From an uncultured Nitrospiraceae bacterium (GTDB lineage Bacteria > Nitrospirota > Thermodesulfovibrionia > Thermodesulfovibrionales > Dissulfurispiraceae): a DNA stretch of 44,014 nucleotides. Below, one piece after another: positions 2,051 to 40,631 of the stretch; position 1 is the stretch's first letter, and every line of letters starts with the position of its first letter. Under the pieces are notes generated by a model. The model worked only from the letters and a program-made list of their open reading frames with translations, had not been told where the DNA came from and searched no databases. Location of the stretch: contig CAMTVO010000011.1 in assembly GCA_947085205.1 (NCBI GenBank), positions 1 to 44,014 of the forward strand, read 5' to 3'. The translations under genes and the position numbers were made by a program.

Positions 2051-2076
2051 TAACTCCAAACTCTTAACTCAAAACT
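2051..2076. repeat. Heptamer tandem array in the atpD-atpC spacer
   Basis: TAACTCC AAACTCT TAACTCA AAACT. Confidence 0.7.
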
Positions 2077-2082
2077 GTATTA

Positions 2083-3498
2083 TTATCTGCTCCAGCCGAG
2101 TTTTCTTGCCTTCTCCTCTGCCTCTTCAATTGTTCCGACCATGTAGAACGCCTGCTCAGGCATATCGTCGTACTGGCCGTCGGCTATTGCCTTGAATCCT
2201 TTAATTGTATCTTCAAGCTTCACATACTTGCCCGGCGTGCCTGTAAATACTTCCGCAACAGCAAAGGGCTGGCTAAGGAATCTCTGCATCTTTCTTGCCC
2301 TTGAAACGGTAAGCTTATCGTCTTCGGCAAGCTCTTCCATACCTAAAATTGCGATAATATCCTGAAGCTCCTTATACCTCTGGAGTATCGACTGCACCCT
2401 TCTTGCAACGCCGTAGTGTTTCTCTCCGATGATGAGCGGATCAAGCGCGCGGGATGTTGAATCGAGCGGGTCAACTGCCGGATAAATGCCGAGCTCGGAG
2501 ATTTGCCTTGAAAGAACGACGGTTCCATCGAGATGGGTAAATGCCGTTGCAACCGCAGGATCAGTAAGGTCGTCGGCAGGAACGTATATCGCCTGCATTG
2601 AGGTAATAGCGCCTTTCTTTGTGGTGGTAATTCTTTCCTGGAGCGCACCCATGTCAGTGCCGAGGTTCGGCTGATAGCCGACCGCGGAAGGCATTCTTCC
2701 TAAGAGCGCCGAAACTTCCGAACCTGCGAGAGTGTATCTGAATATGTTATCGATAAATATAAGAACGTCCTGCCCCTGATCCCTGAAGTATTCCGCGGTT
2801 GTAAGTGCCGTTAAAGCAACCCTCAATCTCGCCCCGGGAGGCTCGTTCATCTGTCCGTATATCAGGGCAACATTCTTAACAACACCTGATTCTTTCATTT
2901 CACGATACAGGTCGTTTCCTTCCCTTGTTCTCTCTCCGACGCCTGCGAATACCGAGACACCGCCGTGCTTCAAAGCGATGTTATGGATCATTTCCATGAT
3001 AACGACGGTCTTTCCGACGCCTGCGCCCCCGAACATTCCCATCTTTCCGCCTCTGACAAACGGTACAAGAAGGTCAAAGACCTTAACGCCTGTCTCAAAG
3101 ACCTGAGACACCGGCTCCTGATCCACAAATTCAGGCGCAAGCCTGTGAATAGGCCACCGCTCCTCTGTCGGGATTGGACCGAGTTTATCGTAAGGGTCTC
3201 CGACAACGTTCATTATTCTTCCGAGAGTTGCCTTTCCAACAGGCACAGCTATCGGCTTGCCTAAGTCTGCAACCTTCATTCCCCTAACAACACCGTCGGT
3301 TGTCTGCATTGCAATGGCTCTCACCTTGTTGTCGCCAACGTGTGACGCAACCTCAAGAGTAATATCGATGGCCGGGATGCCTTTGTCAGGCGCGCCCGGA
3401 GACTCTATCTTTAAGGCGTTTAGAATTTGCGGAAGCTCTTTGTCAAACTCCACATCAACAACTGCACCAATTACTTGCGATACCTTGCCTTCATTCAT
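2083..3498 (-). CDS. atpD: ATP synthase F1 beta subunit
   Basis: GGAGVGKT Walker [10 protein letters not shown]; start MNEGK with AGGAGG RBS. Confidence 0.99.
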
Positions 3499-3524
3499 TG
3501 TAAATAACCTCCTGTATCCTAAAG

Positions 3525-3550
3525 AAATTTCAAATCTCAAATTTCAAATT
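3525..3550. repeat. Heptamer tandem array in the atpG-atpD spacer
   Basis: AAATTTC AAATCTC AAATTTC AAATT. Confidence 0.75.
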
Positions 3551-4421
3551 ACTGTTTTAAAGCCTCTACACCGCCTACGATGTCCATTAACTCCTTGGTT
3601 ATGGATGCCTGTCTCGCCTTGTTGTACTGCAAGGTTAAGGAAGATATCATGTCATCTGCAGCCTTTGTGGCGTTCTCCATTGCAGTCATCCTTGCCGCCT
3701 CCTCTGATGCCTGTGATTCAAGGAGAGCCCTAAAGACCTGTATCTCAAGGTTCTTGGGCAGCAACCTTTCGAATATGGTCTGCTGCGAAGGCTCGTAGAG
3801 CAACTCGCCTGCACCTTCCTGCGATTCCTTTTCCTCTGAGGATACAGGCGAAAGCGGAAGCAAACGGACGACAGAAACCCTCTGAACAAGGGCAGACTTA
3901 AATTCATTATAAACGAGCATTACTTCATCAAATGTCTCGTTTGTGTAATTCTCGATTATGTCCTTTGCAACTTCCTGTGCATTGTAATAGGAGACCCTTC
4001 CGGAGAGACCTATCCATGACTGCCTTAATGCGATTTCTCTTCTTCTGAAGAGGTCTGTTCCCTTCTTTCCTATAGCGCTGACACTCACCTCTATGCCTTC
4101 GCTCCGGAGGTCTTTGATGAGCTTTGTCGCTGCCTTCATAACATTGGTATTAAATGCGCCGCAGAGCCCTCGGTCACCTGTAAGCGCCATCACCTCGACC
4201 TTATTTCTCGGTCTTACCTCAAGGAGAGGATGTCCCGTATCTACCGTCTTTGCAAGACTTGTGAGTACAGAATTCATCTTGCCGGCATAAGGTCTCAATT
4301 CAAGGATTCGCCCCTGCGCCCTTCTGAATTTTGCAGCAGCGACCATCTTCATGGCCTTTGTGATCTGCTTTGTGCTCTTAACAGAGCCTACTCTTTTTCT
4401 TATCTCTTTTAAACCAGGCAT
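3549..4421 (-). CDS. atpG: ATP synthase F1 gamma subunit
   Basis: ITKAMKMVAAAK, DRGLCG, YNKARQASIT. Confidence 0.99.
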   Translation of the reverse strand: MPGLKEIRKRVGSVKSTKQITKAMKMVAAAKFRRAQGRILELRPYAGKMNSVLTSLAKTVDTGHPLLEVRPRNKVEVMALTGDRGLCGAFNTNVMKAATKLIKDLRSEGIEVSVSAIGKKGTDLFRRREIALRQSWIGLSGRVSYYNAQEVAKDIIENYTNETFDEVMLVYNEFKSALVQRVSVVRLLPLSPVSSEEKESQEGAGELLYEPSQQTIFERLLPKNLEIQVFRALLESQASEEAARMTAMENATKAADDMISSLTLQYNKARQASITKELMDIVGGVEALKQ

Positions 4422-4441
4422 TCACTTACCCCTTATAGTTC

Positions 4442-38854: not shown

Positions 38855-38860
38855 GATTCC

Positions 38861-38904
38861 TCCGTTAGCCGTGTCCGTTGTCCGTTCTAACAGACAACGG
38901 ACAC
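38861..38904. repeat. Inverted heptamer-based hairpin upstream of nrpR
   Basis: GTGTCCGTTGTCCGTT-CT-AACAGACAACGGACAC (15/16 match). Confidence 0.8.
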
Positions 38905-38916
38905 CTTCACGAAAAC

Positions 38917-40491
38917 TTACTTTAAAAGTATCCTCTCTGCTTCCTTCATGTCGGATTCCATTACATACGGTATTCCTGTAACCTCTGCTGCCTCCTTTGT
39001 CAGTGATACGAGGTCATTTCTGTCAAGATAGTTTATGGCAAATTTCCTTGCTCCTGCCATTAACTGCTGGAGTCCGAGTTTAAGCCTGTCGCAGAATGTG
39101 TACATTGCGATAGCGCCGAGCGGAAGTTTTTCAAAATCCTTGCCATATTTAGTTTTCAATGCTTCGTATGTTATGAATATCCTCTCCGGGACATCGCCGT
39201 ATTTTTTAACCTCTGTCGGGAGCTTCTCCTCTTCTATCCACTTCTTGATATTTTTACCAATAAAGGCAGGTATCATGAGCGCCCTTCCCATGCATACGGC
39301 CTTGAAGTAAGGCGCGCCCATTGCCAGAGCCTTGAATATATGGTCTTCGAGAGAAAAACCGCCGGCTATGGCCATATCAGGGACATACTTGCCTTTTGCC
39401 TTTAACTGGGATGCAAACTTGTATGCGAGGGACTGGAGGTATATTGTAGGGATTCCCCATTCGTTCATCATCCTCCACGGGCTCATTCCTGTACCGCCGC
39501 CAGCGCCGTCTATGGTCAGAAGGTCAATTTCTGCGTCAGAGGCGTATCTTATAGCCCTTGCGAGGTCGGATATCCTGTATGCCCCTGTTTTAAGGGAAAC
39601 AAATTTTGCCCCTGCATCCCTATAATGCTTTACAGCCTTTACAAAGCCTTCATGCTCAACCATTCCGAGTCTCGAATGCCTCTCGAACTCCCTGAATTCC
39701 TCCTGCTGAAATGCCCTCTGCACTACATTGTCTTCAGGATTCGGCACAACAATATATCCCTTTTTATATAATTCCTGTGCCCTTTCGAGGGTCTTGAGCT
39801 TCACCTCACCGCCGATGTCTTTTGCCCCCTGACCCCATTTGAGTTCTATGCACTCTACACCGAGCTTCTCTATTGCATACTCGGCAGAGCTGAGCCTTGT
39901 GTCTTCCACATTCTGCTGAAGAAGGATGTTTCCATAGCCATTGTGCCACTCCTTAAAGTGCCTGACCCTCCTCTCAAGCTCCGGGGATTTCACCACCCTT
40001 CCGTTCTTGATTTCTGATTTAGAGTCCATGCCGACAACATTTTCGCCGATTACGACAATGATTCCTGAAATGGCAGCGCCGGCTGCCAGCCCTTCCCAGT
40101 TATCCTTTGCGATATCTGTTGAACCCAGGGCGCCTGTAAAAACAGGCACATTTAGCTTGATCTTATTTTTATTGCCGACTTCGACCTCTGTTGAAACAGC
40201 GGGGAATATGGCCTTGTCAGGATCAGGATCAACTCCGTGAGCGCCAACGCATGTGCCCTGAATATTAATGTGTGAATAATCTACAGGATACTTTTTCGTC
40301 GCCCCTGCAGTTATCTTGCCGAATGGCATCGGATAAATAACCTCTCTGCCTCTGTATGAGGACTTTCCGATTTCGCATGGGCCTGGACATCCGTCAAGAC
40401 ATACAGAGCATATGCCCGAGTATGGCGCAGGATCAGGAACCCTGTTCCTCGTTCCTGTTGCCGAGCTTGCATTTGGTTGACCTTGATGCAT
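38917..40491 (-). CDS. Stand-alone FMN-binding glutamate synthase family protein with N-terminal Cys cluster
   Basis: CSVCLDGCPGPC; ELKWGQGAKDIGGE; DGAGGGTGMSP. Confidence 0.85.
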   Translation of the reverse strand: MHQGQPNASSATGTRNRVPDPAPYSGICSVCLDGCPGPCEIGKSSYRGREVIYPMPFGKITAGATKKYPVDYSHINIQGTCVGAHGVDPDPDKAIFPAVSTEVEVGNKNKIKLNVPVFTGALGSTDIAKDNWEGLAAGAAISGIIVVIGENVVGMDSKSEIKNGRVVKSPELERRVRHFKEWHNGYGNILLQQNVEDTRLSSAEYAIEKLGVECIELKWGQGAKDIGGEVKLKTLERAQELYKKGYIVVPNPEDNVVQRAFQQEEFREFERHSRLGMVEHEGFVKAVKHYRDAGAKFVSLKTGAYRISDLARAIRYASDAEIDLLTIDGAGGGTGMSPWRMMNEWGIPTIYLQSLAYKFASQLKAKGKYVPDMAIAGGFSLEDHIFKALAMGAPYFKAVCMGRALMIPAFIGKNIKKWIEEEKLPTEVKKYGDVPERIFITYEALKTKYGKDFEKLPLGAIAMYTFCDRLKLGLQQLMAGARKFAINYLDRNDLVSLTKEAAEVTGIPYVMESDMKEAERILLK

Positions 40492-40588
40492 AATAGACCT
40501 CCAAATAATTTAGTAATACTTATTATTTTGGGTTTAAATTAAGTATTTATAACCCAAAAGGACAAAAAAATACCAAAGGCATTTTTGC

Positions 40589-40604
40589 CCGAATCTTAAT
40601 TCCG
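40589..40604 (-). promoter_or_regulatory. Candidate NrpR operator
   Basis: CGGAA-TTAAGA-TTCGG, one mismatch to the archaeal GGAA-N6-TTCC. Confidence 0.45.
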
Positions 40605-40631
40605 ACTTGAAACTTGCATCTTGCAGCTTAC
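40604..40631. repeat. Degenerate heptamer array after the regulator stop
   Basis: GACTTGA AACTTGC ATCTTGC AGCTTAC. Confidence 0.6.

Follow-up and report, generated by a model that had tools for sequence, protein, structure and literature searches.

Tandem arrays of seven- and eight-nucleotide (nt) units are scattered through the genes and spacers of a 44,014-nt stretch of DNA (the window) from an uncultured Nitrospiraceae bacterium (contig CAMTVO010000011.1 of assembly GCA_947085205.1), and their build and left-right order match those of the inverted arms that flank genes for four-helix-bundle (4HB) proteins (PF05635/TIGR02436). The arrays arise at sites that are empty in relatives, through insertion or overwriting. 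We favour, at slightly better than an even chance, the reading that they are footprints of 4HB cassettes, written into tolerant sites as blocks of four to five units. An earlier note on this DNA had mentioned a tie between such arrays and 4HB genes, which holds in this genome and across phyla, and it was right in saying that the window contains no PF05635 gene of its own.

The assembly to which the window belongs as contig C11 (hereafter G000) comprises 1.89 Mb and is 90% complete. Genes were called by a custom script and named by NCBIfam and Pfam matches, by which the earlier names of atpF, cysteine desulfurase, rapZ, lptA, the DUF512 gene, rsmB, truA, pyrH, mqnD (PF02621), ogt and the nucleotidyltransferase were confirmed, the lptA, desulfurase, DUF512 model, tetratricopeptide repeat (TPR) and nucleotidyltransferase matches lying below curated cut-offs. 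The claimed excess of periods 7 and 8 over shuffled controls is large, both in the window and genome-wide, and each unit named in the earlier note was found in the window. At a score of at least 10 the window holds 24 such arrays (shuffle mean 2.2, maximum 5) and at a score of at least 12 it holds 21 (mean 0.7, maximum 3), with 60 protein-preserving shuffles in each case; under a stricter core rule the numbers are 12 for period 7 and 2 for period 8, where 200 shuffles give 0.79 and 0.30. Across G000 the counts reach 382 for period 7 and 104 for period 8; three synonymous-codon shuffles gave 13-21 and 7-14. Two or three of the 24 window arrays (e.g., those at 31871 and 43102) may be due to chance. 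Degenerate arrays are those of rapZ, with a score of 13, of a second rsmB site, with 10, and of the tRNA nucleotidyltransferase, with 7. Most of the 484 strict arrays of G000 lie wholly within predicted open reading frames (ORFs; 297), the others being intergenic (130) or running across a gene end (57), so distributed that 195 of the 1729 predicted genes contain at least one array. The units of 450 arrays fall into 82 greedy clusters. Many arrays form inverted pairs with a gap below 60 nt, a point unstressed before. Two frameshift-like gene splits were recognized in G000 by means of the proteins of G008, a complete relative (1366 reciprocal best hits, median identity 80%), and neither lies at an array. 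No Rfam match was found in the window or at seven 4HB loci. Metagenome evidence comes from contigs only, depth spikes at arrays being traceable to other loci or organisms; one metagenome locus that duplicates an already counted relative was left out of the counts.

The 4HB family occurs in 27 of 41 related genomes. G000 has two full 4HB genes with inverted arms, on C65 and C23, and one longer 4HB-suffix protein. The cassettes follow one plan, in which a G-rich left arm, a gene for about 120 amino acids (aa) and a complementary right arm succeed one another. The C65 gene has a GTTGGAG-type arm on one side and a CTCCAAC arm on the other, and in-frame arrays of similar units are present in the genes to either side; in the predicted fold its arms pair, the element as a whole being not unusually stable (z -1.0). 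Inverted arms accompany 121 of 169 full-length 4HB homologues (29/42 from relatives, 58/80 from GTDB and 34/47 from viral contigs), as against 12 of 277 control windows. Among these 121 armed loci the arm periods are 7/7 in 90 and 8/8 in 18, and the left arms are G-rich, AG being present in 94. Arm units are shared by all 13 pairs of proteins above 80% identity, by 21 of the 30 pairs at 70-80% and by 260 of the 6864 below 50%. Cassettes lie between protein genes, and gene-less arms are some 200-fold commoner. As to cargo between paired arrays, 4HB was the sole recurring one found; what was otherwise seen enclosed were scattered ordinary genes.

Several 4HB loci deserve mention on their own account. 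A 194-aa 4HB-suffix protein of G000 (TIGR04258; L003, C14:122475-122684) has weak arms and adjoins a type I restriction-like gene. G008 carries near-identical 4HB copies with an identical internal TAA at 1520418 and 1736895 (L038 and L062), whose unit is among the commonest in that genome despite this TAA, and a further copy with an internal TAG at 927811. Finally, at G024 C2:111597-113359 and G005 C9:41326-43096 a weak PF05635 match stands beside a reverse transcriptase (RT) of about 350 aa, in the layout of a true diversity-generating retroelement (DGR).

Free arrays resemble cassette arms in several countable respects. When polarity was scored by a model learned from the arms of the 121 cassettes, neighbouring arrays less than 60 nt apart stood in left-right order 79 times and in right-left order four times in G000 (n=103), and 46 times and twice, respectively, in G008 (n=74); 54 inverted pairs of 62-128 nt with cassette polarity are present in G000. 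Four to five copies make up 75/121 and 81/121 of the arms and 346/499 of the arrays (the lower side of this range being cut by the detection threshold), and the chance of passing from five to six units is 0.20-0.26 in G000 (0.20 in genes). The earlier range of three to eight units thus gives way to one of mostly four to five, the arrays themselves being real. Around cassettes there are local halos: of 35 arrays lying no more than about 1.5 kb from a cassette, 13 have a unit that matches its arm, against 2.3 by permutation (0/5000), and arrays of G008 match a cassette arm in 6/11 cases within 3 kb versus 184/1848 far off. The arms of the four scored G008 cassettes match 166/413 arrays in G008 versus 72/499 in G000. 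One unit of G000 recurs at numerous unlinked places, with 59 overlapping matches to its pattern in G000 as against 2 in G008, and none for the reversed control in either genome. That 415/499 arrays have a unit matching any arm, versus 325-344 with shuffled letters, is not used as evidence, this control being too permissive. Order, halos and unit tracking point to a directed process, acting in trans as was suggested before.

The arrays of the window, with coordinates and strand, are the following.

2052..2076, +: AACTCYW array in the atpC-atpD spacer; an ATTTGAA/TTTCAAA-type array is found here in 4/10 relatives.
3525..3550, +: AAATYTC array in the atpD-atpG spacer; relatives have an AGTGAAT/TATTCAC hairpin, other elements or nothing.
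7010..7043, -: AGTGAAT array in the hydrophobic N-terminus of atpF, in right-arm sense on the coding strand; the same unit builds arms of the 4HB cassettes L036, L060 and L048.
8017..8047, -: GGGTCAA x4 in cysteine desulfurase, an in-frame gain of ~24-27 nt; empty in 7/7 relatives.
9623..9662, -: degenerate array in rapZ, exceeding relatives by 12-15 nt.
12603..12667, unstranded: inverted pair TGGAGTRA / YACTCCA without an ORF, between lptB and lptA; folds (z -3.7).
13103..13205, -: left-right pair in the predicted signal region of lptA, GCGATGG x4, spacer and TTGCCTC x5 on the coding strand; relatives hold other units at this site.
13799..13866, +: junction of lptC and aroE, degenerate array with an ACGC core.
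15846..15868, -: DUF512 gene, GTTCGGA array in the loop that follows its PDZ domain.
16677..16706, -: TPR gene, array of GGGTCAA type close to the C-terminus.
19515..19535, -: rsmB, a weak GAGTT array also present in G021 and G013.
19805..19834, -: 8-mer TACTCCAT x4 in rsmB, in place of host sequence.
22527..22573, +: perfect CAGCAGT x5 with an A-rich tail in truA, a 42-nt in-frame gain.
23840..23930, unstranded: inverted pair GCGTT / AACGC upstream of a dksA-like gene; folds (z -5.5).
25351..25436, -: left-right pair, GAGTTYK x6 and ACTCTTG x4-5, in a putative N-terminal extension of pyrH; the units are mismatched and the pair folds poorly (z -0.9).
27912..27950, +: AACTC-core 7/8-mer array in the cysK-mqnD spacer.
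28272..28317, +: ACGCACG-type array in mqnD; relatives have ACAGAAG, TTTCAAA or nothing.
28392..28421, +: CTCATCA array in mqnD; the unit is similar in G008 and G002, other relatives having CCAAACT or CCGCAAT.
31200..31230, -: ogt, array of GCCTCTC/GCCTATA; G005 and G014 have complete left-right pairs in this position.
35853..35878, -: tRNA nucleotidyltransferase, array of TTCAGG type, degenerate (score 7).
38861..38906, unstranded: short inverted pair TCCGTTG / CAACGGA; folds (z -4.8).
40605..40629, +: CTTGCA array in a spacer.

The segments are not conserved (conservation would have told against the earlier note): orthologous sites in relatives are empty or hold other units. The loop of truA illustrates this among 29 relatives, 20 of which have a 12-nt empty site, three a longer loop with no clear array, and six an array, these being of four other unit types, with two units in series in G018. 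In rsmB the octamer block measures 45 nt, and all seven relatives compared have 39-42 nt of ordinary sequence and no array there, so the block overwrote host sequence. Arrays in spacers turn over like those in genes in the syntenic stretches of relatives. On the scale of whole genomes, 79 of 177 internal array sites of G000 also hold an array in G008 (45 with a different, 13 with a similar and 21 with the same unit), where the background rate is 13/1259 at random sites and 9/85 at random indel sites; the reverse comparison gave 69/106 sites with an array versus 34/1182 random ones. The G008 counterparts of the remaining sites are shorter in 43 cases, similar in length in 36 and longer in 19, and the commonest length gain at empty sites is 21 nt (6/43 and 6/23). 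In contigs of run X6, whose listed pieces are mostly 94-98% alike, an AACTC-type repeat replaces 73 letters at 14680-14754, and short insertions occur at 13775 and 16162. No microhomology seeding of new arrays was detected at 37 sites (3.68 vs 3.73). Neither fixed ends nor duplicated target sites can be made out in the G008 alignments, the relatives being too diverged for clean junctions. Comparison of pair spacers with host sequence as their possible source covers 13 cases only (combined P 0.25). Sites orthologous to the window arrays yielded no 4HB gene, neither in the 40 syntenic stretches taken from 10 relatives nor at 14 metagenome loci. In their syntenic stretches, five relatives have 2.5-3.3 arrays per 10 kb, three have 0.9-1.6 and two have none.

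Two further elements were seen. Window positions 14680-14754, between aroE and the DUF512 gene, form a hairpin that begins GTAGGGGC and that we take to be of the repetitive extragenic palindromic (REP)-like kind. In place of the array that G000 carries at the junction of atpD and atpG, G008 has a 1.6-kb insert without a 4HB gene (L091, 1856178-1857764).

How 4HB cassettes might write such blocks can be outlined with the help of known structures. The 4HB homologues 2GSC and 2RLD have five chains in their structures. PF05635 resembles the DGR protein Avd (PMC10053308), of which all five protomers touch one RNA stem-loop (10.1101/2023.10.23.563531), and a GGGAATC repeat of four units extends over the start of XCC0516, whose protein is that of structure 2GSC (PMC4692102, supplement). 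By analogy, a pentameric 4HB protein would bind one unit per subunit, which would set both the core of 3-5 nt and the ceiling near five units. Host polymerase or recombination would copy an arm-like block in one step, mostly near the cassette; a single step is favoured because additions of 7 nt one at a time would shift the frame of housekeeping genes, and the commonest gain of 21 nt agrees with it. Selection would retain only those blocks that keep the frame and lack a stop, in loops, in signal regions and in spacers, tolerant sites would be rewritten while cassette variants come and go, and slippage would afterwards scramble the order of units. Slippage, against which the earlier note had set a generating process, probably still remodels arrays once they are formed.

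Several observations weigh against this reading. The association is a correlation without direction, and a host process could also write arms beside 4HB genes, a family in which we know of no catalytic activity. The five-unit ceiling is weaker in G008, where the chance of a sixth unit is 0.34-0.40. The two cassettes of G000 match only 44/499 of its own arrays and 28/413 of those in G008, and donors of the commonest G000 units were not found in this 90%-complete assembly. Arms of unrelated cassettes give log2 ratios of G008 to G000 matches from -2.7 to +1.9, so that the values for the four arms of G008 itself (0.8 to 2.2) are positive but not all beyond the unrelated range. Density does not track 4HB number (G011 has seven matches and 0.9 arrays per 10 kb, G013 one match and 2.5), so that something lineage-specific permits invasion. 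At common sites with different units polarity agrees in only 37/61. Close 4HB proteins often come from kin, and the tracking of units by proteins is therefore not independent evidence. A residue-to-base code sought in 65 4HB representatives yielded two weak columns (family-wise error rates 0.017 and 0.007), one of them at the C-terminus, next to the arm, and was not accepted. As for possible partners, no GxxExxY nuclease (PF13366) was found in G000.

The strongest competitor, which we nevertheless consider unlikely, is host slippage biased towards seven bases, which would keep old repeat sites uniform while their units drift, the 4HB genes being merely among the repeats. Polymerase slippage is the published proposal, as summarized in PMC4679880. 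It would accommodate the 79/177 sites that hold an array in G008, 34 of them with the same or a similar unit, as well as the small share of arrays for which the G000 cassettes account and the lack of common flanks and of much common unit order in arrays of the same unit. It does not predict the left-right order, the halos around cassettes or the recurrence of one unit at many unlinked loci, and new arrays stand at sites that are empty in 7/7 relatives and at which steps of 7 nt would shift the frame. Loss of mismatch repair as a cause was rejected, MutS being present in 40/41 genomes, and DinB was not found in the array-rich relatives G002, G021 and G005.

Somewhat harder to credit is a model akin to MITEs (miniature transposable elements with inverted repeats), in which the left-right hairpins of 60-130 nt would be cassettes that have suffered deletion and that a transposase or nuclease moves as entire units, in the manner of REP/RAYT or Rickettsia palindromic elements, with single arms as their remains. 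The 54 inverted pairs would be such elements, G000 has one Y1 transposase, other hairpin families occupy some array sites, and a few elements look alike in arm and spacer by eye. Nevertheless, arrays of the same unit agree in 5.61 of 14 inner flanking positions, versus 5.46 for unrelated units, and in 5.56 versus 5.36 outer ones, and unit order is only slightly common to them (runs of at least 21 nt in 23 versus 7-15 of 1500 pairs). Because the flanks are at background and the order is so little alike, same-unit arrays are not copies of whole elements; of the generating or mobilizing process proposed earlier, the copying of one mobile element thus falls away, common spacers being likewise absent. 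There are 79 left-right pairs and only 54 complementary ones, no net length was gained at 36 of the 98 sites without a G008 array, and the alignments lack evident fixed ends and target duplications. Besides the arrays, G000 and G008 contain at least four other mini-hairpin families, with 23-67 motif matches per genome where present, one of which is absent from G008; some of these hairpins lie in frame at the same sites as arrays.

Retrohoming of the DGR type, in which the Avd-like protein and an RT would copy arm RNA into cDNA that overwrites targets, appears very improbable to us, in spite of the resemblance of PF05635 to Avd (PMC10053308), the overwriting of rsmB without length gain and the presence of RT in G002 and G008. 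No RT (PF00078) match was found in G000 (90% complete), G021 (100%), G018 (99%) or G013 (96%), all of them rich in arrays, and no RNA-strand selection was detected, G.T and A.C on the transcribed strand standing at 146:147 in cassettes and at 70:76 and 48:46 in empty pairs. A regulon selected by the host, with arrays as binding sites or RNA hairpins for 4HB protein or RNase III control, appears less probable still, for although many pairs are predicted to fold well and RNase III cuts the Coxiella intervening sequence (IVS) at its first heptamer (PMC4990558), units and their presence turn over between close relatives, pairing lacks a strand bias and left and right polarities are about equally common in genes (112 and 105).

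Repeat DNA rewrites 195/1729 predicted genes of G000 in frame, including mutS, carB and pyrH, and thereby supplies proteins with new loops and signal regions. To our knowledge, no cause is generally accepted for the bacterial excess of heptamer repeats, nor do we know of a function for the large PF05635 family outside DGRs; polarity, copy ceiling, local halo and the match to resident units tie the former to the latter by counts that can be checked. More tentatively, and with appreciably less than an even chance, 4HB could be a self-propagating repeat writer, a 120-residue pentamer, with no catalytic site known to us, that recognizes five copies of its own 7-8-nt unit and has host enzymes write or overwrite blocks of it throughout the genome, without transposase or RT. 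Such a writer would unite the bacterial heptamer excess, the repeats of the short tandemly repeated repetitive (STRR), TAACTGA and GGGAATC kinds and also the 23S IVS in a single system, and here it would be altering the loops and signal peptides of roughly one gene in ten.

Some genes stand out for their array content or for the lack of it. An 860-aa protein of G000, presumably HypF-like from its sequence, has 10 in-frame arrays (C43:27926-30508), the carB-, cobQ- and murD-like genes have four each, and mutS itself holds one (C6:21873-24464), with a different unit in G008. In the window, two AT-richer genes without arrays occupy 20778-22338 between rsmB and truA, one of them with sub-cut-off similarity to inverse autotransporter beta-domains; no RnpB-like or other RNA was detected in the spacer at 20480-20760. 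An AbrB-family gene followed by an 87-aa ORF without family match (31338-31858) looks like a type II toxin-antitoxin pair. Around 27170-27220, the longest listed ORF of the cysK-like gene (26958-27887, 309 aa) is apparently intact, and an overlapping TTG ORF on the + strand is probably spurious.

Each part of this picture has published relatives. Cyanobacterial STRR sequences are dispersed sets of heptamer repeats, and with the long heptanucleotide simple sequence repeat and STRR class the arrays of G000 have in common the excess of period 7, not the small number of units or the mainly intergenic location. Rickettsia palindromic elements and MITEs are hairpin repeats that occur in frame within conserved proteins; their copies are homologous along their length, whereas the G000 arrays have only a unit vocabulary in common. 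The GGGAATC repeats of Xanthomonas and GGGGAYT repeats of Nostoc show a preference for four units and 70-75 convergent inverted pairs (Rehm, 2015; PMC4692102), and resemble our arrays in period 7, in having fixed and variable positions and in that preference. They form one G-rich unit family, 89-93% intergenic and read as G-quadruplexes (PMC4692102), in contrast to the ~80 unit clusters of G000, of period 7 and 8 and ~60% in frame; a link to 4HB is not drawn in the accessible part of that paper. The TAACTGA repeats of Beggiatoaceae, cyanobacteria and Bacteroidetes are dispersed, patchy sets of 2-6 units, for which the accessible part of the source gives no mechanism (MacGregor, 2015; PMC4679880). 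They consist of a single unit and are mostly intergenic, whereas G000 has many units turning over at fixed coding sites; one 4HB cassette, L043, has TAACTGA-type arms. The 23S IVS with S23p resembles a cassette, with a 4HB gene between complementary ends and GACAGAT heptamers of strain-variable copy number upstream (Warrier, 2016; PMC4990558), but it lies within 23S rRNA and is excised by RNase III, whereas the cassettes of G000 stand between protein genes. Avd, a pentameric four-helix-bundle barrel whose five protomers bind a stem-loop (PMC10053308; 10.1101/2023.10.23.563531), works with RT, template and variable repeats, whereas the cassettes carry arms and RT was not found in G000. A search whose coverage left subscription journals largely outside found no paper that joins genome-wide heptamer arrays to 4HB genes. 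The earlier description of an undescribed system has thus to be narrowed, as four-unit convergent heptamer arrays (PMC4692102) and heptamers upstream of the S23p ORF (PMC4990558) are in print: published already are classes of heptamer repeats, the preference for four units and a single locus that joins 4HB with heptamers, and the arrays of G000 belong to a known class of repeats.

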